Assembly: GCA_027366075.1 (NCBI GenBank)
Contig: DAHXLI010000028.1
Span: forward strand, 1 to 36,616
Length of the DNA: 36,616 bases
Direction: 5' to 3'
DNA from: Candidatus Parvarchaeota archaeon
GTDB taxonomy: Archaea > Nanobdellota > Nanobdellia > Parvarchaeales > Parvarchaeaceae
The position numbers and the translations under genes are program-made. The notes beneath the pieces were generated by a model. That model saw only the letters and a list, made by a program, of their open reading frames with translations. It was not told the DNA's origin and ran no database searches. Numbering within the stretch: the stretch's first letter is position 1; every line of letters begins with the position of its first letter. Positions 2,708 through 26,698 of the stretch are shown piece by piece.

Positions 2708-3418
2708 TTATGTGTAGAAGCAAGAAGGTGCTACGACATTGCCCCCCGTCTGCGTTGAGAAGACGTCTATTATCGCTTCTGGGGGGATGGTATTATGTAG
2801 ATATAATTCTCCTGTCGCCGCGCCACAGTTTGAGGTAGGATAAACACCCGAAGCGCCAATCGTGCTGTTTATGTATGCGCCAGCCGAAGTAAACATAGTT
2901 ATGTTATATGCGGCGGGAAAAGCGATATATTTGTTGTTGAAGATAGTGAGGTTGTAACACAGATAACTCCCGCTGTAAGAGTAAGAATAATTTATGTAGG
3001 TAACTGGAGAATCAAAGCCTATTTCGACTATGCCAGTCTGGTTATACCTGGCGTACATGACATAATTCCCAGATGTCGCTGGCAGTACACCTTCAAGCTT
3101 TACTTCCGCCCGGCCTATTGAAGAATATTGCGGAGACGTGATTTTTATATAGTCACCACAGAAAAACGAGTTTAGCGTCTGTATCGTAGGAAAATCTATC
3201 GTAAAAGAAGTCTTTGAACCTATCCCTTCCGAAAATACATAGTTTGCCTGCTGCACTATTGAACTGGTTATAGTTGATAACTGGTCATTATTAGACTCGG
3301 TTGTATAACTGGAGTAATAAACCAGCACGTACGCGATAAATACGGCGATTATGCTAAGCGCAATGCCGGTAATAACGAGATATTCCGTAGCGAATTGCGC
3401 CTTTTTATTTATATGCAT
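2708..3418 (-). CDS. class III signal peptide (type IV pilin-like) protein
   Basis: The N-terminus MHINKKA-QFATEYLVITGIALSIIAVFIAYVLV shows a basic leader, A/G at -1, Q at +1, E at +5, then a hydrophobic helix. The body is rich in Ser/Thr/Tyr/Asn and has 4 Cys. Confidence 0.7.
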   Translation of the reverse strand: MHINKKAQFATEYLVITGIALSIIAVFIAYVLVYYSSYTTESNNDQLSTITSSIVQQANYVFSEGIGSKTSFTIDFPTIQTLNSFFCGDYIKITSPQYSSIGRAEVKLEGVLPATSGNYVMYARYNQTGIVEIGFDSPVTYINYSYSYSGSYLCYNLTIFNNKYIAFPAAYNITMFTSAGAYINSTIGASGVYPTSNCGAATGELYLHNTIPPEAIIDVFSTQTGGNVVAPSCFYT

Positions 3419-7550: not shown

Positions 7551-8639
7551 TTATTGTGGCACTGGCTTCATGTATTTATTATCAACATTTGAATCTGTAG
7601 GCCTTAATAAGTCTTTATCTATCGCTGGCTTCGGCAGTCCTTTCTTTTCTCTTAGCCGTTCTATTATGCTAAGAACCTTATCGACTACTTCTTTCGTCGC
7701 TTTCATCTTTCTTGAATATTCGTCACCGGTTATACTCTTAAGTTCGCCGTGGTCGATTTTCTTAAACCACTTTATTACGTCTTCCACCTTTTCTACATCC
7801 TCTTTTGTAAGGACTTTTTCCCTTTCGACGGCGACCGCTAAGAGGTCTTTTCCCACCTCTTTTGGCACCGGCGGCAGGTATCCATATTCCATTAGTAGCG
7901 CTTGCCCGGCGGCTACGACAGCATTATAAAGGTCGAGCGAAAGTTTATTTGTGAGCACATTTTCCGCAAGCATCAATAGCCCTTCGGCATTTTCAATGTT
8001 CGAGTCTATAGATTCTTTTGTCGGGATTATATTCCCAGTCTTGTAAAGCATCTGTATTGGGACGAAATAGCCGGTATCGTATACTGCTACGCCGTCTCTA
8101 AGAAGCGTCAGTATCACAGGGTTTGGCTTTATTATCGAAGCCCAAAATTCGGATAATGGGTATGCCTGTGCGTGTATCTTATCGGAGAAATCCCTTGCAA
8201 TCTCGGCCATCTTGGTAAAAAGTCTATCTTTTAATTGCTCCAAAGTGAATTTTTGTATGTCGGTGTCATCTACTATGAAGGCCACGTCTATGTCAGAAGT
8301 GCTAGTCATCCCAGTCTTCGTCTTTGAACTCCCAAATATTATTATAGCTTTTATATATTTCCTAAAAAGACTCAAAACCCTCAAAAAATATGATCTTATG
8401 CTGTTTGCATCTTTTGTAGGGAGCAGTTTATTCAAAACGTCAAAAGACAAACCAGCAAGCTGCCCTGGCGGTTCTATATGTTCCGTTTTTCCGTCTTCGC
8501 CCACTTCTAAGCCTACAAACGAACCCATATAATCTACTCTTTCATTTAATTCGTCTATTTTAGCGGACAGTGCATCTATCGTAGAAAAAAGTCTATTAAG
8601 CGCTGCCTCGACGGGGTTTACATTTTCAGTTTGATGCAT
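7551..8639 (-). CDS. nucleotidyltransferase-domain protein (pol-beta/MNT superfamily) with an N-terminal coiled coil
   Basis: IIIFGSSKTKTGMTSTSDIDVAFIV is the G-S..D-x-D minimal NTase motif. A helical C-terminal half follows. Confidence 0.65.
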   Translation of the reverse strand: MHQTENVNPVEAALNRLFSTIDALSAKIDELNERVDYMGSFVGLEVGEDGKTEHIEPPGQLAGLSFDVLNKLLPTKDANSIRSYFLRVLSLFRKYIKAIIIFGSSKTKTGMTSTSDIDVAFIVDDTDIQKFTLEQLKDRLFTKMAEIARDFSDKIHAQAYPLSEFWASIIKPNPVILTLLRDGVAVYDTGYFVPIQMLYKTGNIIPTKESIDSNIENAEGLLMLAENVLTNKLSLDLYNAVVAAGQALLMEYGYLPPVPKEVGKDLLAVAVEREKVLTKEDVEKVEDVIKWFKKIDHGELKSITGDEYSRKMKATKEVVDKVLSIIERLREKKGLPKPAIDKDLLRPTDSNVDNKYMKPVPQ

Positions 8640-8738: not shown

Positions 8739-8746
8739 TTTATATA
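8739..8746 (+). promoter_or_regulatory. TATA box for the 8771 gene (near-leaderless spacing)
   Basis: tttatata is centred about 28 nt upstream of ATG 8771, in an AT-rich divergent intergenic region. Confidence 0.4.
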
Positions 8747-8770
8747 TATCTCCTCATCAAATAAGATAAT

Positions 8771-10486
8771 ATGAATATAACCGAGATTGTAAGATACCAA
8801 AAAATGATAGCCGCAGCCAGTCCAAAAGTCGCAAAAAGCTGGGTAGACGAACTAAAGACAAGGGCGTGCGGACTTAATACCCGTTATCGCGGATCGATAT
8901 CTGAGTTAAAATACGCCAATAAAATCTATAAACCTGACATAAACCTACTTGGAAACCAAAATGGCTTTTTTCTTTCGATCGATATAGAAAACGCATATCA
9001 ATTCCAGTCAGAATATAATGGGGTACATCAGGAATTAAAGGCACTTGGTTATGCCGAAAATCTAAAAACGGCCGAATCAGTAGATCCCGCGGCTCTTTCT
9101 AACCTCATGACGATGGCCTTTGAGAAAAGAAAAGCGCTTGAAGATAGGGCGATGCAACTCTTAGGAAGCGTTAACACGGTTGTAAAATCGATAATATCCA
9201 TAACGTACGAGTTAAAAGAGTTGGACAGGAATTATTCTTTTTATAAACTGGCAGAATCAAGCGACCTCCAAAAGAAGGCGGCCTCAGAACTTGCCTTAAA
9301 AAGGATCTTTATCGATAATGTAGATGCAAGGAAAGGGGGTGCAAGCTTAAGCGCGTTATCAAGGGCGCCAACGCAGGGGCAAGGTGGCGCAGGCTTTATA
9401 GATTTAATATCCGTCTTCTATTCCGTAAAGAGTCTAAAAGACACAGAAGCCCTGCAGAGAAATGAACAGTATAAGAATATAATAAAGAACAGGTACGTAG
9501 AATACGAAGAGTGGAAAAAAATAAACAAGGCGGACCTCAGCAACAGGAGAGAAATGCTCCTCCAATATCTAAAGAGCCAGGCCGCGGCATATGAGATGTA
9601 TAAAAATTGGGCCGTAGAATCATTAAGCATTTTAAATAGGATAAACATGAAAGGCGTTACAAACGCTAGCGATTACATGAATGCCGCTAAAAGACCGGAC
9701 ATAATGGAAACGTCAGAATTTTCGGTGGAAGTAATGGCAGCAAAATCGATGTATGTGCGAGAATATGAAGTGGAATATCAAAGGGCATTTGGAACAAAGG
9801 GACCAGAACTGCCATCTAAAGTAACTCCATTAGGTAAGCTCCTTACAGAGGGACCAAAAGAGGGGAGTAGGTCGTTCTTACATACCAGTTTGAGAAAACA
9901 TGGCCCAAAAGTCGTTGCAGCGTTAGAGGCATCGTTCAGCTTCACAGAGAAGCAGTTCTTTCCTAAAGGCGTTCCTCAAGACAGGGCGCAATACATGGGC
10001 ACACTGGGTATTAAAATAAAACCTTATTGCTTTACGCTTGATGAATGGTATCTTTTCAAGAAAGCTTTAGAAACCTACATAAACAAGACCGTTTTCCAAA
10101 ACCTAGACCAAGTATCAGTATCTTCGCTGAACGTGATAAAGAAGGATCTCGATAAATACATTGCAGAGGCTGAAAAGAAAGACGAAAAAGAAAAGCCAAA
10201 ATCAAATTACGCGCTTTTCGATATCTATCAAGCTTTCAAGGACGATCTTGTTGGCATAAACAAATCCATGTCTTTCGTCGCAGGCGCAGGCGAAAAAAGA
10301 GCGTTTGACCCAAATATTTATGAAATAGAGGTAAGTCATAGGATGTTCAACAGGTTCAGAACCAAAGATGCGGTAGCAGTGGGTCTTTTTAGATCAAATG
10401 CGGATGCTTCATTGATATATGAAGAATTCAAAAGAAGAAAAAAATTATTGAATCCACTTTCAACATTTGATAACCAGTTGTTTTGA
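8771..10486 (+). CDS. hypothetical 571-aa soluble, largely helical/coiled-coil protein (no recognisable family)
   Basis: Long uninterrupted ORF with its own TATA element. It has no TM segment, no Walker motif and no signal peptide. Confidence 0.7.
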   Translation: MNITEIVRYQKMIAAASPKVAKSWVDELKTRACGLNTRYRGSISELKYANKIYKPDINLLGNQNGFFLSIDIENAYQFQSEYNGVHQELKALGYAENLKTAESVDPAALSNLMTMAFEKRKALEDRAMQLLGSVNTVVKSIISITYELKELDRNYSFYKLAESSDLQKKAASELALKRIFIDNVDARKGGASLSALSRAPTQGQGGAGFIDLISVFYSVKSLKDTEALQRNEQYKNIIKNRYVEYEEWKKINKADLSNRREMLLQYLKSQAAAYEMYKNWAVESLSILNRINMKGVTNASDYMNAAKRPDIMETSEFSVEVMAAKSMYVREYEVEYQRAFGTKGPELPSKVTPLGKLLTEGPKEGSRSFLHTSLRKHGPKVVAALEASFSFTEKQFFPKGVPQDRAQYMGTLGIKIKPYCFTLDEWYLFKKALETYINKTVFQNLDQVSVSSLNVIKKDLDKYIAEAEKKDEKEKPKSNYALFDIYQAFKDDLVGINKSMSFVAGAGEKRAFDPNIYEIEVSHRMFNRFRTKDAVAVGLFRSNADASLIYEEFKRRKKLLNPLSTFDNQLF

Positions 10487-10489
10487 CCT

Positions 10490-10663
10490 ATGGCGAATAG
10501 AAAAGGAGAGATGCCAATAACAGAGATCATAGCGATAGTCATTGCGATAATAGTGCTTCTTATCGGGGTAGTAATAGCACTTTATTTCAGTAGCGGGGGG
10601 TCAAGCCTTGGGGATTCAATATTCAAAACCCTTTCCTTTAGCTGGCTTTTCGGCAATGGATAA
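10490..10663 (+). CDS. 57-aa single-TM mini-protein with a class III-like N-terminus (mini-1)
   Basis: Not in the ORF track. The ATG lies 3 nt after the stop of the 571-aa gene. Sequence: MANRKGEMPITEIIAIVIAIIVLLIGVVIALYFSSGGSSLGDSIFKTLSFSWLFGNG. Confidence 0.55.
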   Translation: MANRKGEMPITEIIAIVIAIIVLLIGVVIALYFSSGGSSLGDSIFKTLSFSWLFGNG

Positions 10664-10829
10664 AAAAGCATCGATTCAAAGTAGCACATTCCTTTACATA
10701 ATCCTTCTGATAATAGTGATTTTACTGATAATAATCTTCCTAGAATTTTTCTCGCCGTATAAAATAACGAACCTTTTCGATTCGTTTATAAATTCAGGGA
10801 ATAATATAAACGGTAACAATTATGCTTAA
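10656..10829 (+). CDS. 57-aa single-TM mini-protein (mini-2)
   Basis: ATG 10656 overlaps the mini-1 stop by 8 nt (ATGGATAA). Sequence: MDKKASIQSSTFLYIILLIIVILLIIIFLEFFSPYKITNLFDSFINSGNNINGNNYA. The track start 10608 is probably an upstream extension. Confidence 0.5.
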   Translation: MDKKASIQSSTFLYIILLIIVILLIIIFLEFFSPYKITNLFDSFINSGNNINGNNYA

Positions 10830-10965
10830 TAAAAAAGGAGTTACTGATTATATCTTGCTTCTCATAATCATAATAGTAATATCGGTAGTGCTCGTGATAT
10901 TTTATTTGGTGGTGTACGGAAGCGCACCCGGCATATTCCCAAAGATTCCAAACCCATTCGGATAA
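10822..10965 (+). CDS. 47-aa single-TM mini-protein with a class III-like N-terminus (mini-3)
   Basis: Not in the ORF track. The ATG overlaps the mini-2 stop by 8 nt (ATGCTTAA). Sequence: MLNKKGVTDYILLLIIIIVISVVLVIFYLVVYGSAPGIFPKIPNPFG. Confidence 0.55.
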   Translation: MLNKKGVTDYILLLIIIIVISVVLVIFYLVVYGSAPGIFPKIPNPFG

Positions 10966-10969
10966 CGAT

Positions 10970-11158
10970 ATGTCAAGACTTAATAAAAAGGGGATTACCG
11001 AGGCAACGATATACTATATAATAGCAATAGCGCTGGGCATAACCGTTGTGGTAGTTTACATACTATTGGTAGGGCCGGGTACGATAGTAACCTACATATC
11101 CAACTTTTTCGGAGGGTTCTTGCACCTGGTTACCGGCGGATTAAGCACTAACGGTTGA
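10970..11158 (+). CDS. 62-aa single-TM mini-protein with a class III-like N-terminus (mini-4)
   Basis: Sequence: MSRLNKKGITEATIYYIIAIALGITVVVVYILLVGPGTIVTYISNFFGGFLHLVTGGLSTNG. It starts 4 nt after the mini-3 stop. Confidence 0.6.
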   Translation: MSRLNKKGITEATIYYIIAIALGITVVVVYILLVGPGTIVTYISNFFGGFLHLVTGGLSTNG

Positions 11159-11206
11159 AATAAAATATAATAAACTTATATTCAGTGAATAAGATAATAA
11201 TTAGAT

Positions 11207-11776
11207 ATGATAACTTACAGCGAGTTCACCCGCATAAGGAGACTGGAGCAGGAAGAGAGGACGCTTACAAAATTGACTAACGAAACCATTGAAGAGATGA
11301 AAGAGTATATCGCGATCAATAAAAAATCTCTAGAAGAAGCAAAGAAAATGGACGACCAGAAGAGGGCCGAGGAAATATCTACCCAGATAAAGAATGCTAT
11401 AAACGCGTTTGACCAGATAATAACGGCTAGGATGGGAAAAATTGCGACGATGACTATACAAGGAACTAATCTAGATCAGGCAAGGAGCAACCTTACCTCT
11501 GAGGAACTTATACTCTTTGACAACATGCTGAAGCTGGTCAACGAGCACAAGGGTAAACTGGTAAGGGAAATAAAAGAAATCCCACCAAGAGAGCTACAAA
11601 AGATAGAGCCAGAAGAGAATACAAATAAGATAGTAATAAAGATAACAGCAGATGTCCCCCGGTTTGTGTGGAAAAATAATAAGACCTACGGGCCTTTCTC
11701 TTTTCCAAACGTAATAGAGATAGACAGAGACGTAGCTAACATCCTTATAAAGGGCGGAAAAGCAATAGGTGTCTGA
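11207..11776 (+). CDS. GINS complex subunit, Gins51 (Gins15)-like
   Basis: The helical N-terminal domain begins ITYSEFTRIRRLEQEERTLTKL..IEEMKEYI. The C-terminal IVIKITADVPRFVWKNNKTYGPFSFPNVIEIDRDVANILIKGGKA matches the archaeal Gins51 B-domain pattern. Its stop overlaps the hef start (TGATG). Confidence 0.65.
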   Translation: MITYSEFTRIRRLEQEERTLTKLTNETIEEMKEYIAINKKSLEEAKKMDDQKRAEEISTQIKNAINAFDQIITARMGKIATMTIQGTNLDQARSNLTSEELILFDNMLKLVNEHKGKLVREIKEIPPRELQKIEPEENTNKIVIKITADVPRFVWKNNKTYGPFSFPNVIEIDRDVANILIKGGKAIGV

Positions 11777-13230
11777 TGTCCATCAGAAAAGGAAAAATAG
11801 AAGAGCGAGAGTATCAAAAAAACATCTTTGAAAATGCGAAGAATTCCAACACGCTCGTCGTTCTTCCCACCGGTCTAGGTAAAACTGTAATAAGCGTGTT
11901 AGTAGTAGATTACAGATTAAGCAAGTACAAAGATTCTATGGCACTTTTTTTGGCGCCCACAAAACCGCTAGTAAGCCAACATTATAAGACGTTCTCGGCT
12001 TTAATGGACGTTAAGCTTGGTATGACGAGTGGCGAGACTAAAAAAGCCGACAGGCAAAACGTATACGAAACGTCCAGGTTGATTTTTGCGACGCCGCAGA
12101 CCGTGGAAAATGACATAGAGAACGGAAATATAGATTTTTCAGATTTTAGCCTGCTTATAGTAGATGAGGCACATCACACGGTTGGAAATTACGCTTATGT
12201 AAAGATAGCAAAGGAATACATGATGAAATCGGCACACCCGCTTATACTCGGCTTGACCGCGTCTCCAGCTTCGGATCAGGAAAAAATAAATCTAATCTGT
12301 AGAAACCTAAGCATAGCCAACGTCGAGATAAGAGGAGAAGACGACCCAGACGTGGCGCCGTATGTAAAGTCAAAAACCATAGAAGAAATAAGGCTGGAAT
12401 TGCCCAATGAAATCTTGGAGATAATCTCTTATCTAAAGATATTCATACAAGAGCAGGTAGTCGCGCTTCAGCATGTAGGGTTGCTAAAAGACGCCGCGCT
12501 TAACAGGATAAATCGAAGGACAATACTTATGCTCCAGAAAAGTTTACAAGCGCGAATGTTCTCCGGGAATAGAAATTTCTACACAATAAGGGGCATAATA
12601 ATAACGTCAAAACTTTTGAAATTATACCACGCACTGAACCTTATCTCTACCCAGAGCGTAGGAGCTTTCAATAGATTCATCCAAAAAATAATAAATGAAG
12701 GCACGTCAAAGACGGATAAAGAGCTGGCAAAGGCGGAACAGATAAGATGGCTATTCGAAAAATCACAGAAGATATTAGATAGCGGAGTGGAGCACCCAAA
12801 GCTGAAAGAGCTAAGCAAGATACTTTCCGATTCTTTTTCTTCGGAGCAGAAAGCCATAATATTCACGCAATACAGGGACACCGTAGATGTCATATACGAC
12901 ACCGTACGGCGCAATGAAGGCGTAAGACCTGTCAAATTCATAGGACAGGGAAAGAGCGGCCTTTCTCAGAAGAAACAGATTGAAATAATAAAAGACTTTG
13001 AGGCAGGGGTTTACAATGTGCTCGTTTCGACTAGTGTAAGCGAGGAGGGGATGTCGATAAAGGGCGCGGACCTGGCAATATTTTATGAGACAGTGCCGAG
13101 CGGAATAAGGTCGATACAGCGAAGAGGCCGCGTAGGCAGGTTTAACGCGGGAAAGATATTCATACTTATAACAGAAGGTACAAACGATGAAGGATATTAT
13201 TGGGTGTCAAAAGAAAAGAGAGTAAGATGA
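11776..13230 (+). CDS. hef: Hef/FANCM-type SF2 helicase (helicase part only; probable frameshifted C-terminal tail to 13304)
   Basis: REYQKNIF..TLVVLPTGLGKT (motif I), IVDEAHHTVGNYAY (motif II), GLTASP, VLVSTSVSEEGM, PSGIRSIQRRGRVGR (motif VI), then EGYYW. Confidence 0.9.
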   Translation: MSIRKGKIEEREYQKNIFENAKNSNTLVVLPTGLGKTVISVLVVDYRLSKYKDSMALFLAPTKPLVSQHYKTFSALMDVKLGMTSGETKKADRQNVYETSRLIFATPQTVENDIENGNIDFSDFSLLIVDEAHHTVGNYAYVKIAKEYMMKSAHPLILGLTASPASDQEKINLICRNLSIANVEIRGEDDPDVAPYVKSKTIEEIRLELPNEILEIISYLKIFIQEQVVALQHVGLLKDAALNRINRRTILMLQKSLQARMFSGNRNFYTIRGIIITSKLLKLYHALNLISTQSVGAFNRFIQKIINEGTSKTDKELAKAEQIRWLFEKSQKILDSGVEHPKLKELSKILSDSFSSEQKAIIFTQYRDTVDVIYDTVRRNEGVRPVKFIGQGKSGLSQKKQIEIIKDFEAGVYNVLVSTSVSEEGMSIKGADLAIFYETVPSGIRSIQRRGRVGRFNAGKIFILITEGTNDEGYYWVSKEKRVR

Positions 13231-13305: not shown

Positions 13306-13776
13306 TTAGCCGCACGGAAGAAGAATGTCTGATGCGCCACCGGGAGAATAAAAGAAACCGTCTATGGCGGTGTTAGAACCGCTAGTGTTGCAGGTGTATA
13401 AGTAATATTTTTGAGTACTCCCTTTCGTTACAGTTATATTGGTATTGATGTCGCTTTCTCCAGCCACATAACTTTGTATTTTTCCAGTTATGTTACTATA
13501 CAAGGTATAAGTCAGCCCCGGGCTCCCATCTGACACGTATAACTCGTATGTGCACGATGCGCTGGAACTTGTAGTAAAATTATTTATTAAGGTCAGGCCG
13601 CAAACGGCTGGCTGCGTATTGAGCTTTGGCACAGTTTTTCCCAAGTCAAAAAGGGAAAAATGAAACACGTTGCTTAAAATTACGAATGCTATCACTAAGA
13701 AAGACACTAATATTATTATCACTGCCACTTTCTCTACCGATGAACTCCCCTTTTTGTTTAAGACGTTACTGCGCAT
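13306..13776 (-). CDS. class III signal peptide (pilin-like) protein, last gene of the Cys-rich operon
   Basis: MRSNVLNKKG-SSSVEKVAVIIILVSFLVIAFVIL (E at +5 if cleaved after G). 4 Cys and several N-x-S/T sequons. It overlaps the upstream gene by 19 nt. Confidence 0.7.
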   Translation of the reverse strand: MRSNVLNKKGSSSVEKVAVIIILVSFLVIAFVILSNVFHFSLFDLGKTVPKLNTQPAVCGLTLINNFTTSSSASCTYELYVSDGSPGLTYTLYSNITGKIQSYVAGESDINTNITVTKGSTQKYYLYTCNTSGSNTAIDGFFYSPGGASDILLPCG

Positions 13777-15245
13777 ACATACATCTGATTTCTCCCTAAA
13801 AGATTAGGTGCTGTTCCAGCTAGCTGGCTGAAGTAATCTTCAAGGGAAGTCACGCACCCCTGCAACCCACTCGTAGTGTAGAGAGCAGTTGTAATAGCCT
13901 TTGTGGCCGAAGTGTCTACATATTGGTTGCAAAGCGTGTTACTTTGGCACCGGCCGTAAAGATACCCCACCGCCCCGGCCCCAGCTAATGTAACTATACT
14001 AGGATTACCAGTTAAGGCAGGAGTGCCTATTGCAGCGCCGTAAACCGCTAACGCTTCTGAACATTGGTACTCTATCCCCGTGGTCGGGTAATTGTTAAGC
14101 CAAGTTTGTTGAAAACATTCTGGTGGCATGGAGACGGTAGCGGGAGGAAGCGCGCTATTAGCGAAACTATTCAGATAAACGACGTACAGCTCCGCGTTGT
14201 TTATGCTAATATTCGAATATACACCGACATTTTCCGACTGTCCGCTAGTCTTATTTTTGTAACTGTACAGGAGATTTACGCCCGGCGCAAGATAATCAAA
14301 GTAGGAAACATTAACGACAGAGTTGTTATTTACAGGTTCGGTGAGAGTACACAGGTTAGGTGGCCTATAATCGCCGGTATTCGAATCGTATTGGACCGTG
14401 CAGTTTGTATAACCATACGGAGTCTGCGCACAAAAGTCATTAAAAGTCTGTGTACAGCTACCGACTTGGCCTGTCGAATTAGTGCAGCTAAGAGTGGCTT
14501 TGTTAAAGTAGCATCCCTGTGTAGGGTCACAAAGATACGCTGAAAGGTTATTTGCTGCGGTCGTCACAGCCGTGGTGCTGTTGAGAAATATATTTTGTAG
14601 GGCGTATCCAGCGCCCGTAGGGTTATAGCCTTGTTGGTATTCGCAGCTGAAGTAATCGTACGAAGGCGCAGTGCACTGGGTCGGAGTAGTCGTATCGCAG
14701 GAAAAGCCGTCTGGATTTGCAGCACTTTGATAATTAGCGCACGACTGTTCCGCGGTATGGTTTAGGCAACTTATCTGCTGTGACAAAGCGACGCTTTTTA
14801 GATACTGCGTAAGGTTGTAGAAGGTAAGATTTTTTTGATTGCCGAATGAAACGCCTATGACACTGCAAAGCGCTGGAGAATTATAGAGCACATCTAGGCC
14901 GGAATTCGCGCCGTACTGGTACCAGCAGGTACCGAGCGCATCGGCTACGCCGCTAAAAAGTTGACCTGTAGTAGAACTTGAGGTGTAAGTCTGCGTAGCC
15001 GGCGAGCAGCCTATCAAAGGTGGCGCGCCTACTAACGCCTGTATCGTAGTGGATATACAAAAGAATTTGCTTATACAAAGGTCGTTATAAAAGAAATTTG
15101 TGACCTGAGAACTGCCGTAACATGAAGTAGCGTTCGTAAATCCAAAACCGAAAAGCAGGAAATATGCGAAAACAAGCACTATCACAAAGATAAAGATGAC
15201 GAAAAGTATTATAAATACAAAATTCTCACCCGCGGTCTCAGCCAT
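13758..15245 (-). CDS. N-terminally anchored, cysteine-rich (24 Cys), sequon-dense extracytoplasmic protein; family unknown
   Basis: MAETAGENFVFIILFVIFIFVIVLVFAYFLLF is followed by a Cys/Asn/Thr/Ser/Tyr/Gly-rich body with many N-x-S/T sequons. Its N-terminal domain looks paralogous to that of 15282..16211. Confidence 0.75.
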   Translation of the reverse strand: MAETAGENFVFIILFVIFIFVIVLVFAYFLLFGFGFTNATSCYGSSQVTNFFYNDLCISKFFCISTTIQALVGAPPLIGCSPATQTYTSSSTTGQLFSGVADALGTCWYQYGANSGLDVLYNSPALCSVIGVSFGNQKNLTFYNLTQYLKSVALSQQISCLNHTAEQSCANYQSAANPDGFSCDTTTPTQCTAPSYDYFSCEYQQGYNPTGAGYALQNIFLNSTTAVTTAANNLSAYLCDPTQGCYFNKATLSCTNSTGQVGSCTQTFNDFCAQTPYGYTNCTVQYDSNTGDYRPPNLCTLTEPVNNNSVVNVSYFDYLAPGVNLLYSYKNKTSGQSENVGVYSNISINNAELYVVYLNSFANSALPPATVSMPPECFQQTWLNNYPTTGIEYQCSEALAVYGAAIGTPALTGNPSIVTLAGAGAVGYLYGRCQSNTLCNQYVDTSATKAITTALYTTSGLQGCVTSLEDYFSQLAGTAPNLLGRNQMYVCAVTS

Positions 15246-15281: not shown

Positions 15282-16211
15282 TTAAACAGCCGTACTATTT
15301 GTTATGCATACAAATGCGCGGTCTTGGCTTAGGACCATTGTATTAAGCAATTTACCGCAGAAAGCAATTACAAAGTTCCCGCATGCGCCTATTACATTAT
15401 CTTCAGAGTTATACGTAAGTGATCTTGGGTTGCTCAAAGAGCTTATTGGCAAGTTTATAGCGCCCAGTTTCTGGTCCGTTGAATTATCATAATTGCAGGC
15501 GTTACCTACGTCTGGTTGGTTGAATTTTGACACATAGTCACATTGAGTATTAAAATTTAGGGTGCAATCGGTGCCGGAAAGCCCGCCCGAGGGATAACCG
15601 AAATAGTATATGACATAAGTGGAGCCGTTTAATACTTCTTCGGCAGGGTTCGTGTAATTCGCAAGCCCCCCCGTACCATTTGTTATAAAAGTTATCTGCA
15701 GAGGGCTTCCGGTATTCTGATAATTATTGTCTATATAATCTATGAGTTGGTTGTAAGTCGTGATCCCACTCCCGGCCCCACTATTAAGTATCTTGCCGGT
15801 ATAGCACTCGAATAGTTGGTTTAATCCAGAACTTACTATCGACGTGCCGGTATTGGCATTGGAACCCTGGAATAGATTGAAACAAGAAGCCGCCTTTGTA
15901 TAGAGTTGTTCAGCCAATGACGATGTATCCTGCGCGTTGACGTTGGAATTCTGGGTGCACGCGCCCTGGATCTGAGAAGCAGCGACTGGGTTGTTTACAT
16001 ATGACTGGCCCACCAGGGGTGCGACAAGGAAAGAGACCGGGAACAAAAATGTATCTACTACGTTGTATTCCACGAATGAAAAATAACATTTCGCGCCGAA
16101 ATCGGTAGCGCCTATCGAGGTCGCAAAGGATATGCTAAAAACGAAAAGCACTACGCCACCTATAACTATTATTATCAACGAGATAATCACCAAAAGTACG
16201 CCTTGTTCCAT
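15282..16211 (-). CDS. N-terminally anchored, cysteine-rich (10 Cys) extracytoplasmic protein; paralogue of 13758..15245
   Basis: MEQGVLLVIISLIIIVIGGVVLFVF is followed by ..AKCYFS..LVAPLVGQ..SCFNLFQGSNANTG.., compared with ..TSCYGS..ALVGAP..TCWYQYGANSG.. in the 495-aa protein. Confidence 0.75.
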   Translation of the reverse strand: MEQGVLLVIISLIIIVIGGVVLFVFSISFATSIGATDFGAKCYFSFVEYNVVDTFLFPVSFLVAPLVGQSYVNNPVAASQIQGACTQNSNVNAQDTSSLAEQLYTKAASCFNLFQGSNANTGTSIVSSGLNQLFECYTGKILNSGAGSGITTYNQLIDYIDNNYQNTGSPLQITFITNGTGGLANYTNPAEEVLNGSTYVIYYFGYPSGGLSGTDCTLNFNTQCDYVSKFNQPDVGNACNYDNSTDQKLGAINLPISSLSNPRSLTYNSEDNVIGACGNFVIAFCGKLLNTMVLSQDRAFVCITNSTAV

Positions 16212-16369
16212 TAAAGACCGCCGAACAAGCCCGAAAAGAAATTAAAAGGCGAACCGCTGTTTGAACTCGCATAATATAAAATCAATATTATAAGTATCGC
16301 TACTATTGCTGTAGCCATCACTATAATCATCCATATTATTCTCCATTCTACGCTTCCTTTAGTGTTCAT
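16211..16369 (-). CDS. 52-aa single-TM mini-protein (same family as 10490..11158)
   Basis: Not in the ORF track. Sequence: MNTKGSVEWRIIWMIIVMATAIVAILIILILYYASSNSGSPFNFFSGLFGGL. Its ATG lies 1 nt after the upstream stop, and its TAA overlaps the next ATG (TAATG at 16209-16213). Confidence 0.5.
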   Translation of the reverse strand: MNTKGSVEWRIIWMIIVMATAIVAILIILILYYASSNSGSPFNFFSGLFGGL

Positions 16370-16370
16370 A

Positions 16371-16883
16371 TCACTGGCCTATGCACGAGGAACAGAGTGG
16401 ACTGTCGCCCGTTATGCATGTAGGTATGCTAGTGTCGCAATTTTGTATGTCCGTGGCATTGTCGGCAACTATCGTGCTACTCTGGCAACTTTCGAGGGCA
16501 GCGGTATTTGAAGGACCTAAGATCTTGCAATTTTGCAATACGCTTGCCGGCGGATTTTGTATGCAGTTTTGAACGACAGAGTTACTGCCATGGCCGTTCG
16601 TCCAATAATCATAGTAACACCAGTTTGTTATACATGTCGTGTTTGCGGTAGCCTGATCATAACAAGCATTGGTAAGGTAACATCTAAAAAGCGGCGTCCC
16701 TTCCATTCTATTGGGCGTGCCGTATTCTGCCTGGGTAAACTGGTTCTCGAGGAGGTTATTGTTATTGCAGCCTATCGGGAACACTTCTGAAAAATTCTGA
16801 TAGAAGATGAAGAAGACCACAAGGGCCACTATGAGAGAGAAAAGCACTTCGTACCATATGAACTCTTCGGTGTTTCCAGCCAT
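16371..16883 (-). CDS. N-terminally anchored cysteine-rich (12 Cys) protein, first gene of the operon
   Basis: MAGNTEEFIWYEVLFSLIVALVVFFIFY is followed by a Cys/Asn/Thr/Gln-rich body (..NACYDQATANTTCITNWCYYDYW..). Confidence 0.7.
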   Translation of the reverse strand: MAGNTEEFIWYEVLFSLIVALVVFFIFYQNFSEVFPIGCNNNNLLENQFTQAEYGTPNRMEGTPLFRCYLTNACYDQATANTTCITNWCYYDYWTNGHGSNSVVQNCIQNPPASVLQNCKILGPSNTAALESCQSSTIVADNATDIQNCDTSIPTCITGDSPLCSSCIGQ

Positions 16884-17412: not shown

Positions 17413-17922
17413 TTATCCGCTGACCGCGCCCTCTATTTCTATCGCTTGTGGGAATAGAGGCGAAGACACGTTCGCGGGCTTATAGTAGATGTCTATCGAA
17501 GCCGTCCACGACGTCGGTAACGACAGCGTAAGATTGCATTCTGCGTAGCCTAGGTCCGGTATATACAGGTTTGGCAGGGCGGAACCAGGTACTTTGGTGC
17601 TATTTTCTATTGTGCTAACGCATTTGCCGGTCGAAAAACTCTGGTTTATGCCAGACGCTATAAAGTATATCTTGCTTATGTTTATGTTCTCGTTTAAGAT
17701 ATTTTGGAAACGAATATAATAGAATCCGGTCGCATTACAGCCGCTGCCGCAATATCCTTGTCCTGTGACTAACAGTCCCGTAAATCCTGAGTAGGTACTC
17801 GACGGCGCGGAAGAGAAGATATTAGGATAAAATATGAAAAGTATCGCCAAGGCGGCTGCGATTATTATGAATGCGATACTGTACCCTAAGAGCATTTCAA
17901 GCATGCTCTGTCCCTTAGCCAT
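17413..17922 (-). CDS. class III signal peptide protein (type IV pilin-like)
   Basis: MAKG-QSMLEMLLGYSIAFIIIAAALAILFIF shows K-G at -2/-1, Q at +1 and E at +5. 4 Cys and several sequons. Confidence 0.75.
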   Translation of the reverse strand: MAKGQSMLEMLLGYSIAFIIIAAALAILFIFYPNIFSSAPSSTYSGFTGLLVTGQGYCGSGCNATGFYYIRFQNILNENINISKIYFIASGINQSFSTGKCVSTIENSTKVPGSALPNLYIPDLGYAECNLTLSLPTSWTASIDIYYKPANVSSPLFPQAIEIEGAVSG

Positions 17923-17954
17923 AGAATACTTTTAAGATACGGATATTTAACGAT

Positions 17955-18026
17955 AGCCTTGGACGGGGATTGGACCCGTGACCCCCTGATTACGAGTCAG
18001 GTACTCTACCACTGAGCTACCAAGGC
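17955..18026 (-). tRNA. tRNA-Thr (anticodon CGU)
   Basis: I folded the cloverleaf by hand: acceptor GCCTTGG/CCAAGGC, anticodon stem CCTGA/TCAGG with loop CTCGTAA, T stem ACGGG/CCCGT. The T loop reads TCCAATC, which is non-canonical at position 55. No CCA is encoded. Confidence 0.8.
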
Positions 18027-18197
18027 TCACTTGAAATCTACAGGGCTACTGTTCACTGCCCTCAAGTATGAGCTTTCGCTTACTATATGTTTTTTAACAT
18101 CGACGGTCTTACCGCAGGAAAAGCATTTTATGGATTTAAGCGAACTGGTCCTTCTGTACTTGCCACAATTTGGACACCTTATTATGTAGCCGATCAT
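18027..18197 (-). CDS. 56-aa zinc-ribbon protein
   Basis: Not in the ORF track. Sequence: MIGYIIRCPNCGKYRRTSSLKSIKCFSCGKTVDVKKHIVSESSYLRAVNSSPVDFK (CxxC-x13-CxxC). Its ATG lies 1 nt after the minD stop, and its stop codon abuts the 5' end of tRNA-Thr. Confidence 0.55.
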   Translation of the reverse strand: MIGYIIRCPNCGKYRRTSSLKSIKCFSCGKTVDVKKHIVSESSYLRAVNSSPVDFK

Positions 18198-18198
18198 G

Positions 18199-18924
18199 TC
18201 ATCTCCAGCCGGTCAGATCTCTTGCAAGTTCCAAGAATGCTTTAGACGCCGGGCTTTTCGGGTTTTGCCAGACTATGGGTATCCCCTTTTTAAGAGCCTC
18301 GAATACGTTCATATCTTCCGGGATCTTCCAGACGTTTCTGGCTTCGACCACCCTACTTACTTCGCTATCGCTCATATGTCCGCTTATCTTTTTATTTACG
18401 CGGTTTAACACGATCCCTATCACCCCAACGCCAGCGGCAATGCTTTCTTCGTTGAGTTTCTTTGCCTCTATCATAGAAGCTATCTCTGGCATAGAAACAA
18501 TCAAAGTGGTGGCGTTCTTCATCATTTTTACGAAGTCTAATCCAGCAGAGGGCTTTGAATCCAGCACCACAAAGTCGTAGTCGTTGGTTATCCTGCCGAC
18601 ATGATGAAAAAGATTTATTATTTTGTATTGTGCATTTCCATCACCCTTGTTCTTGAAGACCCTAGACGGTAGTATGTGAAGATTTGGGTTTCCCGTCTTG
18701 TATATCGCTTCGTTTATCGGAACCCTTCCGTTTAATACGTCTTCGAGCGAGTTCTTGTAGCCTACGAAGCCGTAATATATAGCTACATGCGGAGTATCCA
18801 AGTTTGCGTCAATGATAAGCACCCGCTTTCCCATGGTCGCCAGAGCTGCAGCTAGGTTTACAGACACGGTAGTTTTACCGACCCCGCCCTTTGGGCTCAT
18901 CACGACTATTACGTTTGACGCCAT
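18199..18924 (-). CDS. minD: MinD/ParA-family P-loop ATPase
   Basis: The deviant Walker A VVMSPKGGVGKTTVSVNLAAALA is followed by VLIIDANLD and FVVLDSKPS. I prefer the ATG at 18924 to the TTG start in the track at 18942. Confidence 0.9.
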   Translation of the reverse strand: MASNVIVVMSPKGGVGKTTVSVNLAAALATMGKRVLIIDANLDTPHVAIYYGFVGYKNSLEDVLNGRVPINEAIYKTGNPNLHILPSRVFKNKGDGNAQYKIINLFHHVGRITNDYDFVVLDSKPSAGLDFVKMMKNATTLIVSMPEIASMIEAKKLNEESIAAGVGVIGIVLNRVNKKISGHMSDSEVSRVVEARNVWKIPEDMNVFEALKKGIPIVWQNPKSPASKAFLELARDLTGWR

Positions 18925-18988
18925 ACTATAACTTATACCCAAAGCAATAAAAATCTTGCTTAAATATATATCTGGCTTAGAAAACTAA

Positions 18989-25491: not shown

Positions 25492-26163
25492 ATGCGTGGG
25501 CAATTCTCCATAGAATTCGTGATAGACGTAAGCTTTGTGCTCATAATCGTGGCATTCCTTATAGTCTTCTTCGCGTCTTTCATAAACACAAATTCGGCCG
25601 CCGTAAGCATGAATAACATATGCGATCAGATATCGCAGGGCATAAACGGCGTCTCGTCTTCCGGCGGGCTTTCTTCGATACAATACGTTTCCCTGACCAA
25701 CGGCACCGCGCGGCAGACCTACAATGTAACGGTATCAGACGGGATAGTAATAATATACCTGCTAAATTCAAATGGCAGATCGTCCGCTTTGATAGCCAAT
25801 ACGAATGTGGTATCGTGCGGCGCGGATACGAGAGCGACTGCAAACGAGACTTTCGGGTTTTCCAACCTCGCGATATACGAGAATTCAAGCAACATAGAAC
25901 TTGCGTATCTATACGGAAATTACTCGGGAAACAGCGCCTATCCTTTGAGCATACGCGGAGGCGGGTTTTCCGGCAACGCAAGCCTTTATCTTGTGTACTC
26001 GAACGGCACCTCGTCCCTGCTTAATGGCACCGAGCCGGGCAAAGGTTTCAGTTATGACAGCATAGCCCTGATACAGACGCTGCCTGCCGGGAGCTATCAG
26101 TTCTACGCGGAAGAAGGACTAGACGGCTCCATACACGTATCCTTGCCGTTTTCTAAAACGTGA
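25492..26163 (+). CDS. class III signal peptide (pilin-like) protein
   Basis: MRG-QFSIEFVIDVSFVLIIVAFLIVFFASFI shows R-G, Q at +1 and E at +5. The body is sequon-rich and has 2 Cys. Confidence 0.75.
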   Translation: MRGQFSIEFVIDVSFVLIIVAFLIVFFASFINTNSAAVSMNNICDQISQGINGVSSSGGLSSIQYVSLTNGTARQTYNVTVSDGIVIIYLLNSNGRSSALIANTNVVSCGADTRATANETFGFSNLAIYENSSNIELAYLYGNYSGNSAYPLSIRGGGFSGNASLYLVYSNGTSSLLNGTEPGKGFSYDSIALIQTLPAGSYQFYAEEGLDGSIHVSLPFSKT

Positions 26164-26236: not shown

Positions 26237-26698
26237 ATGAAAACAAAAGCACAGTCAGCTTTAGAATACATGATGACCTATGGCTGGGCCATATTAATCA
26301 TCGTAATCGTAGCTGCTGTCCTGTATTCGTTGGGTATTTTTAGCCCGTCGAGTAGCGTAGGCACGACTGCAACTGGTTTTTCGCCGTTCACGGTCTTAGC
26401 ACAGACCTGTACACCGCATTACCTTGCATTCCAGTTAGGCAACAACGCGGGGGTTACCGTGACTCTCAAAAATGTGTTTTTAACAACATCTAGTGGGATA
26501 ACGGCATCTACTGCTATACTTGCCGACACCAGTTCCGTTGTAACGGGCGGATCTACAACTGTAAACTTTAGCAGTGGTGAAGCTTGTGTATCGGGCGCGC
26601 GCTATAGTGCAAGTATAACCGTAGCGTACACAGAAAGCAACAATTTGGGTTTGCAGACGCTTAATGCGAGTGGAACACTATCAGGATCAGCAAGCTAA
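26237..26698 (+). CDS. archaeal type IV pilin (class III signal peptide, DUF361-like); candidate major pilin
   Basis: MKTKA-QSALEYMMTYGWAILIIVIVAAVLYSLGIF. The body is short and Thr/Ser/Gly/Ala-rich with 2 Cys. It has its own TATA element and a downstream hairpin plus T-tract. Confidence 0.8.
   Translation: MKTKAQSALEYMMTYGWAILIIVIVAAVLYSLGIFSPSSSVGTTATGFSPFTVLAQTCTPHYLAFQLGNNAGVTVTLKNVFLTTSSGITASTAILADTSSVVTGGSTTVNFSSGEACVSGARYSASITVAYTESNNLGLQTLNASGTLSGSAS

Follow-up and report, generated by a model that had tools for sequence, protein, structure and literature searches.

Whether genes packed within a few nucleotides of one another in a compact genome also belong together in function is the question raised by a locus of Candidatus Parvarchaeota archaeon (assembly GCA_027366075.1, contig DAHXLI010000028.1). 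In the stretch analyzed (36,616 nucleotides [nt], referred to here as the window), a gene for a protein of 571 amino acids (aa) is followed by four very small open reading frames (ORFs), m1 to m4, which we call the minis, and then by the genes for GINS and a Hef-type helicase (Table 1). The initial annotation of the window treated the 571-aa protein and the minis as a functional unit and took the minis for small pilin-like proteins. We reached a different account, in which we place moderate confidence: a DPANN-wide 571-aa protein would have been brought by an inversion to a position in front of the minis, which would themselves come from a pilin-like surface cluster.

The layout first described for the locus (571 aa followed by 57, 57, 47, and 62 aa, with a 3-nt gap, two 8-nt overlaps, and a 4-nt gap) was exact in its coordinates. 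If an upstream TTG at position 10608 were the start of m2, that protein would have 73 aa. A check of small-ORF conservation with a Ka/Ks-type test, proposed together with that layout, came out in favor of coding. Behind the 571-aa gene, 26 of 31 informative Parvarchaeum-type loci have m1 to m4 with their order, size, and sequence conserved, and the layout recurs in five further loci. Orthologues measure 53 to 58 aa (m1), 56 to 63 aa (m2), 46 to 54 aa (m3), and 53 to 62 aa (m4). Median pairwise ratios of nonsynonymous to synonymous substitution rates (dN/dS) are 0.03 for m1, 0.08 for m2, 0.09 for m3, and 0.05 for m4, with synonymous sites saturated; between the window and related locus L001, dN is 0.05 to 0.20 and dS is 1.1 to 2.2 across the minis. 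We have hardly any doubt that m1 to m4 are real genes. To see them instead as chance frames in an AT-rich spacer, one could point to their small size, to their hydrophobic, Ile/Leu-rich composition of the kind that AT-rich sequence tends to yield, and to the lack of a family match, as searches of Pfam and NCBIfam returned only noise. We give this view practically no credence: with dN/dS values of 0.03 to 0.09, order and length kept across genera, and distinct tail motifs conserved, it is already refuted by conservation.

Clustered at 90% identity, the m1 family gives 41 clusters, which come from Parvarchaeota only, and one more from Candidatus Rehaiarchaeum fermentans, and a metagenome scan with an m1 profile added only three loci, all in the standard arrangement. 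The expectation that automated annotation would miss the minis was not borne out, since m1 of ARMAN-5 stands in public records as BJBARM5_0302 and the NCBI gene calls for GCA_023380585.1 contain m1 to m4 as well as a fifth mini, m5. A literature search with ARMAN locus tags returned no proteomic or biochemical record.

All minis share one architecture, as had been noted from their heads NRKG, KKA, NKKG, and NKKG: a head of 3 to 8 residues ending in [KR][GA], a polar or acidic turn, about 20 to 22 hydrophobic residues, and a short tail rich in Gly, Ser, Phe, or Pro. In the window, m1 begins with MANRKG/EMPITE (the slash marks the predicted cleavage site) and carries the tail SFSWLFG behind its transmembrane helix; m2 begins with MDKKA/SIQSS, and its helix is followed by F[ST]PYK[IF][ST]; m3 (MLNKKG/VTDY) has a Pro-rich tail after the helix; and in m4 (MSRLNKKG/ITEA) the helix is followed by VGP and a Gly/Phe-rich tail. 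Across orthologues, the signatures are [KR][GA][QE]MPxTE ... SFSWL[FY]G for m1, FLYII ... F[TS]PYK[FI][ST] for m2, KG[VM][TE][DS][YF] ... P..P for m3, and E[AT].[IW][FY]Y ... [VAI]GP ... FF.G for m4. Profile-profile comparison among the minis gave probabilities of 74 to 97%, values inflated by transmembrane composition, and suggests that they are paralogues of one another. By their predicted topology, the minis are conserved single-pass (bitopic) membrane proteins of acid-mine Parvarchaeales.

The gene order in related genomes makes it highly probable that the minis belong with a surface cluster rather than with the 571-aa protein. In the window, this cluster (p170-m5-p309-p495-p156) lies on the minus strand beyond Hef, arranged head to tail and convergent with it, and the same cluster is syntenic throughout Parvarchaeum and conserved in Rehaiarchaeum too. 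In locus L010, m1 to m4, GINS, and Hef are inverted together, away from the 571-aa gene; there, m1 follows p156 in the same direction after 37 nt. L010 and Rehaiarchaeum have the co-directional array m5-p309-p495-p156-m1-m2-m3-m4-GINS-Hef. Within Parvarchaeales, Rehaiarchaeum is a genus that branches more deeply (Rao et al. 2023, PMC10134863), and no 571-aa homologue was found in its 20-kb locus. In the window, GINS and Hef are housekeeping bystanders lying between the minis and the cluster of their ancestral partners, and the GINS-Hef region of Parvarchaeales is a hot spot for rearrangement.

An alternative closer to the initial annotation would make the 571-aa protein and the four minis one module, with a cytoplasmic coiled-coil scaffold kept at a fixed ratio to the minis by translational coupling. 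The position of m1 directly after the 571-aa gene, at a spacing of 2 to 10 nt in the 26 Parvarchaeum-type loci and the five others, agrees with such a module. So does the lack of a TATA-like box in the final 40 nt of the 571-aa gene, by which the five genes are probably co-transcribed in the window; some archaeal pilus loci also hold an intracellular coiled-coil protein (PMC4858521). We nevertheless judge the module quite improbable. The 571-aa family occurs in about 180 GTDB species genomes, whereas the minis occur only in Parvarchaeales, and no small transmembrane ORFs stand beside its distant homologues (0 of 42 analyzable Pace-/Woesearchaeota loci). The inversion in L010 splits the 571-aa gene from the minis, the Rehaiarchaeum minis have no 571-aa gene within 20 kb, and the minis of both follow p156. 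Four Acidifodinimicrobium-type loci present the opposite case, with a 571-aa gene followed by an inverted Hef and no minis within 6 kb. The overlaps, which had been taken as a sign of function, are normal in these compact genomes: in Rehaiarchaeum, m4 and GINS overlap by 4 nt, as do GINS and Hef, so overlaps in these genomes reflect compaction and not shared function.

We therefore regard the 571-aa protein as not functionally tied to the minis, the two being unrelated things joined by position. Against this stands the spacing of 3 to 10 nt between the 571-aa gene and m1, which is kept across the genus Parvarchaeum, and co-expression of the two may have become useful. The order in locus L005 (CAZYMW010000037.1) is p495(+), p156(+), Hef(-), GINS(-), and 571-aa gene(+), so that GINS-Hef is inverted relative to the 571-aa gene, at which the contig stops, short of any sequence in which minis could show. 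In this locus, the 571-aa gene and the minis may have moved jointly, which would likewise count against a purely positional association.

Contrary to the initial annotation, the 571-aa protein is itself no orphan. It is a soluble, basic protein of 65 kDa (isoelectric point, 9.2), alpha-helical with a beta-sheet component, and a homology search returned 49 homologues. Those with 46 to 82% identity come from Parvarchaeota metagenome-assembled genomes (MAGs) (ARMAN-4/5, Parvarchaeum, and Acidifodinimicrobium), and the weaker homologues belong to other DPANN archaea (26 to 37% identity, 460 to 520 aa). When GTDB species genomes were scanned, 181 relatives turned up, in MAGs of Parv-, Pace-, and Woesearchaeota and of "Nanoarchaeota," and a profile search of 1.84 billion cluster representatives matched 640 clusters (at 50% identity) with E values of ≤1e-3, 206 of them at ≤1e-30. 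By sequence similarity, the protein belongs to a large family that is specific to DPANN archaea and has no known function. It has no match in Pfam, NCBIfam (noise only in both), or the PDB sequences, and a 126-sequence profile search returned only the earlier matches and no named Nanoarchaeum protein, that search not having reached Nanoarchaeum. No Walker/NTPase motif was found, in agreement with the initial annotation, nor a metal motif or any other motif of catalysis. Conservation across 126 family members falls mostly on aromatic or aliphatic residues, which suggests a structural role.

Profile search and structure prediction, both suggested earlier for this protein, thus gave a large family and a confident model. 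AlphaFold2 with the 126-sequence alignment produced a model with a predicted local distance difference test (pLDDT) score of 88.2 and a predicted template modeling (TM) score of 0.80. From the N terminus, the model has a small alpha/beta unit, helical hairpins of 50 to 60 residues, a beta-sheet domain (residues 314 to 422), a long helix, and a helical C terminus. Foldseek found no fold match for it in the PDB (best E value, 0.064; TM score, ≤0.18), and an earlier model with a pLDDT of 74 had none in the PDB or BFVD, with TM scores not above 0.18. A BFVD match to an "internal head protein" (E value, 6e-4; TM score, 0.14) was rejected as helical-bundle noise.

In its distant homologues (Pace-/Woesearchaeota, loci L034-L079, 42 of them analyzable), the 571-aa gene has another conserved neighborhood, which may be a conserved module. 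A divergently transcribed gene for an ~123-aa protein (MG.F..F[KR]K, with a C-terminal coiled coil) is present in 21 of the 42 loci, and GluRS stands beside the homologue in 16; an ~604-aa protein with a xylose-isomerase-like TIM barrel (PF01261) occurs in 18 to 23 loci, and a Lys-rich protein of ~292 aa and a downstream acidic protein are also among the neighbors. Neither the window nor the Parvarchaeum loci contain homologues of the ~600-aa TIM-barrel protein, the "MGxF" coiled-coil protein, or the acidic protein. In the window, the divergent neighbor is a nucleotidyltransferase (Table 1), which is conserved at this place in many loci of Parvarchaeum and Acidifodinimicrobium (L010, L017, L022, L026, L031, L085, and L086, but not L005, L082, or L083). 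By description, it may correspond to cls.004259, a DPANN-specific "MNT fused to HEPN" family found in a housekeeping context by Makarova et al. (PMC6393860). The same work lists cluster cls.004340 (NEQ484) as an alpha-helical protein in a housekeeping context (PMC6393860). The 571-aa protein resembles it in being rich in alpha helix, restricted to DPANN archaea, widespread, and found in a housekeeping context, a likeness of description and distribution only that we offer as a lead; in the literature searched, NEQ484 turned up only in the 2019 table.

The TATA box initially noted for the 571-aa gene was found again as TTTATATATA, and a TATA-like box is kept at the same distance before the 571-aa gene in orthologous loci; TTTATATATA probably serves this gene as promoter, for a transcript with a short leader or none. 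GINS has its own, conserved TATA-like box at the same distance as that of the 571-aa gene. Because the 571-aa gene and GINS each have such a box, the likely transcription unit in the window runs from the 571-aa gene through m4. Rfam and tRNA scans of positions 8771 to 11158 gave no match. An exact 11-mer, AATAAGATAAT, is present twice in the window: the ATG of the 571-aa gene follows the first copy without a gap, and the second lies 8 nt before the ATG of GINS. With at most one mismatch, there are 4 matches in the window, compared with 1.95 expected, and a related element, ctaataagattt, precedes the start codon of the 571-aa gene in ARMAN-4/5-type loci. AATAAGATAAT may be an initiator or 5'-end element. 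The block formed by the 571-aa gene and m1 to m4 is a chromosomal locus just upstream of GINS and Hef, as initially stated.

Table 1. Features of the window discussed in the text (a slash marks a predicted cleavage site)
Feature	Position	Strand	Remarks
Pilin-like gene	2708-3418	-	Class III site, KKA/QFATEY
Pol-beta/MNT-type nucleotidyltransferase	7551-8639	-	362 aa; long C-terminal extension; divergent neighbor of 571-aa gene
TATA-like box TTTATATATA	8741-8750	+	About -30 to -21 from ATG of 571-aa gene
AATAAGATAAT, first copy	8760-8770	+	
571-aa gene	8771-10486	+	Exact in ORF map
m1	10490-10663	+	57 aa; 3-nt spacer CCT after 571-aa gene
m2	10656-10829	+	57 aa from ATG; 8-nt overlap with m1, ATGGATAA
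m3	10822-10965	+	47 aa; 8-nt overlap with m2, ATGCTTAA
m4	10970-11158	+	62 aa; 4-nt gap after m3
AATAAGATAAT, second copy	11188-11198	+	
GINS	11207-11776	+	Pfam Gins51_C
Hef-type helicase	11776-13230	+	Pfam ResIII/DEAD/Helicase_C
p156	13306-13776	-	Pilin-like; class III signal MRSNVLNKKG/SSSVEK and hydrophobic stretch
p495	13758-15245	-	N-terminally anchored, extracellular; rich in Cys and NxS/T; conserved head MAET[AP]GE
p309	15282-16211	-	N-terminally anchored, extracellular; rich in Cys and NxS/T; head ME[EQ]G/
m5	16211-16369	-	52 aa; MNTKG/SVEWR, transmembrane helix, SGSPFNFFSGLFGGL; architecture of m1 to m4
p170	16371-16883	-	N-terminally anchored; first gene of minus-strand cluster
Pilin-like gene	17413-17922	-	Class III site, KG/QSMLE
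tRNA-Thr	17954-18027	-	
ParA/MinD-family ATPase	18199-18942	-	
Pilin-like gene	25492-26163	+	Class III site, RG/QFSIEF
Pilin-like gene	26237-26698	+	Class III site, KA/QSALEY

The proteins of the minus-strand cluster would give the minis a context at the cell surface. The mini m5 abuts p309, sharing base 16211 with the p309 start codon, and is conserved at 49 to 87% identity in 20 loci and at 47% in Rehaiarchaeum. The pilin-like p156 carries a domain of ~110 aa rich in N-glycosylation sequons, and its orthologues in the ARMAN-4/5 clade have KG/TSAVEY at the site (E at +5 and Y at +6), a textbook class III site. For p495, a 31%-identical homologue is present in the Rehaiarchaeum cluster and a Pfam search gave no match. 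Together, p156, p309, and p495 are rich in Cys and N-glycosylation sequons.

Do the minis themselves carry class III signals? The published rule for archaeal prepilin peptidases asks for G, A, or S at position -1 and a charged residue at -2, ahead of a hydrophobic domain of ~20 residues near the N terminus (PMC4371748), and all minis fit it, with the exception of headless m4 orthologues. A [KR][GA] head is present in 28 of 28 m1 orthologues; m2 has G or A at -1 in 28/28 and K or R at -2 in 24/28; m3 has G at -1 in 28/28 and K or R at -2 in 27/28; the m4 motif is present in all eight orthologues that possess a head; and all m5 orthologues have K[GA]. In Rehaiarchaeum, where the minis are only ~30% identical, the motif is kept in leaders of three residues (MKG, MRG, and MKA), and PibD is known to cleave leaders of 3 to 4 residues (PMC4307647).

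The head of m1 contains, at the DNA level, AAAGGAG, which resembles a Shine-Dalgarno site for a conserved internal Met at which some gene callers start the gene. A reading of the "KKG" heads as Shine-Dalgarno sequences for internal starts was rejected, as synonymous changes in their codons leave the residues the same: orthologues use GGA, GGT, GGC, or GGG for the Gly, and Lys and Arg codons vary too. The KA and RA variants do not resemble a Shine-Dalgarno sequence, and in m1 of L010 the internal Met is replaced by Leu, which leaves the upstream ATG as the start of m1. From this synonymous variation, the KA/RA variants, and the Leu in L010, the heads are seen to be translated protein sequence under constraint. 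If they were processed, the predicted products would have 51 (m1), 52 (m2), 41 (m3), 54 (m4), and 47 (m5) aa. As far as sequence can tell, the case that the minis undergo prepilin-type processing and have a filament role is evenly balanced.

The closest characterized counterparts are the Epd-system pilins of Methanococcus maripaludis (EpdE/MMP1685, MMP1283, and others), with precursors of 67 to 76 aa and mature forms of 54 to 63 aa (PMC3875500). These sizes correct the earlier impression that the minis recall Flp rather than archaeal pilins. Like the minis, the Epd pilins are very small, have a short leader ending in K/R-G/A followed by a hydrophobic helix, and occur as several paralogues per genome that are unlinked from ATPase and platform genes (PMC3875500, PMC4371748); MMP1685, for instance, is 62 aa when mature, and the pilin genes are scattered away from those genes (PMC3875500). 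The experimentally defined Epd sites are KGQ[VLI] and RAQI (Table 1 of PMC4371748), and the m1 site in the form KG/Q or RA/Q is the same. Compared with the Epd pilins, the minis would be shorter (41 to 54 aa if processed). They have no PF04021 match, lack an N-glycosylation sequon in window m1, m3, and m4, and include m4, which is leaderless in most relatives. Compared with the Epd/EppA type (DUF361/PF04021), they lack Gln at +1, except in m1, and Glu at +5; m1 has Q or E at +1, but its Glu is at +6.

Bacterial Flp/Tad (type IVc) pilins are similar to the minis in their mature size of ~40 to 60 aa, in their single hydrophobic helix with a short tail, and in their tandem paralogues. They differ in the motif G/xxxxEY, which is absent from m1 to m5 and occurs only in p156 orthologues (as KG/TSAVEY), and the minis have no Flp match in Pfam, no TadA/B/C/V genes nearby, and an archaeal rather than a bacterial origin.

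Several observations weigh against a prepilin reading of the minis. None of m1 to m5 matched PF04021, PF07790, Flp, or the NCBIfam pilin and flagellin models at an E value of ≤1. The canonical-looking pilins of the window also fail these models (best PF04021 E value, 0.068, for a 236-aa protein), so for this lineage the power of the profile test is low, and similarity searches are known to miss DPANN pilins (PMC6393860). No A24 peptidase, FlaI/PilB, or TadC/FlaJ gene was found in the 36.6-kb window, unannotated ORFs included, or in the 20-kb related loci; in the window, only an ATPase of ParA/MinD type is present. Since pilin genes of archaea often lie apart from those for the ATPase and platform (PMC3875500), the missing local machinery does not exclude membership in such a system. 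Archaeal pilins do not usually have charged residues at +2/+3, or Pro at +3 as in m1; m2 to m5 have their acidic residue at +2/+3 and not at +5; m2 lacks K/R at -2 in four loci; and the heads of p309 and p495 are acidic.

The headless form of m4 belongs with these points. It was found in 20 of 28 aligned orthologues, mostly of ARMAN-4/5 type (L008, L011-L016, L018-L021, L023-L025, L027-L029, L032, and L033), with the start ME[AS][IV]W[FY]Y, and a search of these orthologues for an alternative in-frame start or basic head found none. Headless m4 begins one residue past the predicted cleavage site of the headed form, as expected both of a "pre-processed" subunit and, to the same degree, of a dispensable head. 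The initial annotation was thus partly right in its class III reading: the [KR][GA] heads are conserved as protein, while the profile match and a nearby peptidase are missing and m4 is mostly headless.

Much of this could be read another way, with the minis as uncleaved signal-anchor microproteins (N terminus inside, C terminus outside) that would be accessory or stabilizing subunits of a membrane or envelope complex with p309 and p495, such as a surface-layer or adhesin anchor, and not pilins. The missing pilin profile match, the absence of a pilus ATPase, platform, or peptidase gene nearby, the naturally headless m4 of most relatives, and the acidic heads of p309 and p495 agree with it, as do mini tails too short for a pilin globular domain. 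The last point loses force in that Flp and Epd pilins also have no globular domain (PMC3875500). An anchor oriented by the positive-inside rule needs no invariant G/A after K/R, yet this pair is kept in five paralogue families down to ~30% identity, and p156 of the same cluster has its textbook class III site. We consider uncleaved anchors unlikely, though worth keeping in view.

Beyond the cluster, four more genes of the window have canonical class III sites of the pilin-like form Q-x-x-x-E (Table 1), so the window is unusually rich in prepilin-type genes, and with these four present a prepilin peptidase is expected in this genome. The ParA/MinD-family ATPase gene lies just upstream of tRNA-Thr and one of these pilin-like genes (positions 17413 to 17922). 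FleN/MinD/TadZ-type ATPases accompany some archaeal and Tad pilus loci (PMC4858521).

In the account that we favor, the 571-aa protein would be a cytoplasmic, nonenzymatic protein of long helical hairpins and a beta-sheet domain, from a family found in housekeeping contexts. The ancestral partners of the minis would be p170, m5, p309, p495, and p156, now on the opposite strand beyond GINS-Hef. An inversion of the segment from m1 to Hef in Parvarchaeum would have placed m1 3 to 10 nt behind the 571-aa gene, whose promoter probably now transcribes the minis there. As class III signal (type IV pilin-like) proteins, the minis would insert with the N terminus inside, and a PibD-type prepilin peptidase would cut them after G/A into subunits of 41 to 54 aa. 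These, with p156, may form the core or minor subunits of a surface structure resembling a type IV filament, of which the large Cys- and glycan-rich p309 and p495 would be the exposed parts. More tentatively, and with low confidence, we suggest that m1 to m5 with p156, p309, and p495 form an undescribed Parvarchaeales-specific type IV filament or pseudopilus, with five subunits of 41 to 54 aa (below any characterized archaeal pilin), with m4 leaderless in most species, and with a possible role as a contact structure to Thermoplasmatales hosts.

DPANN archaea rely on physical contact with a host, and their surface machinery is mostly unannotated "dark matter." The conserved nine-gene Parvarchaeales cluster defined here codes for five microproteins, a canonical pilin-like protein, and, as larger N-terminally anchored proteins, p170, p309, and p495, two of which are large and rich in Cys and sequons, and it provides concrete candidates for an attachment apparatus. 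Within it, m4 offers a natural experiment as to whether pilin-type subunits can function in leaderless form. The 571-aa family, with a confident predicted structure and no relative in the PDB, is a good target for structural and functional work, and the protein should not be read through its neighbors in this genome. The locus is also a caution that overlapping start and stop codons in compact genomes are no evidence of a functional link.

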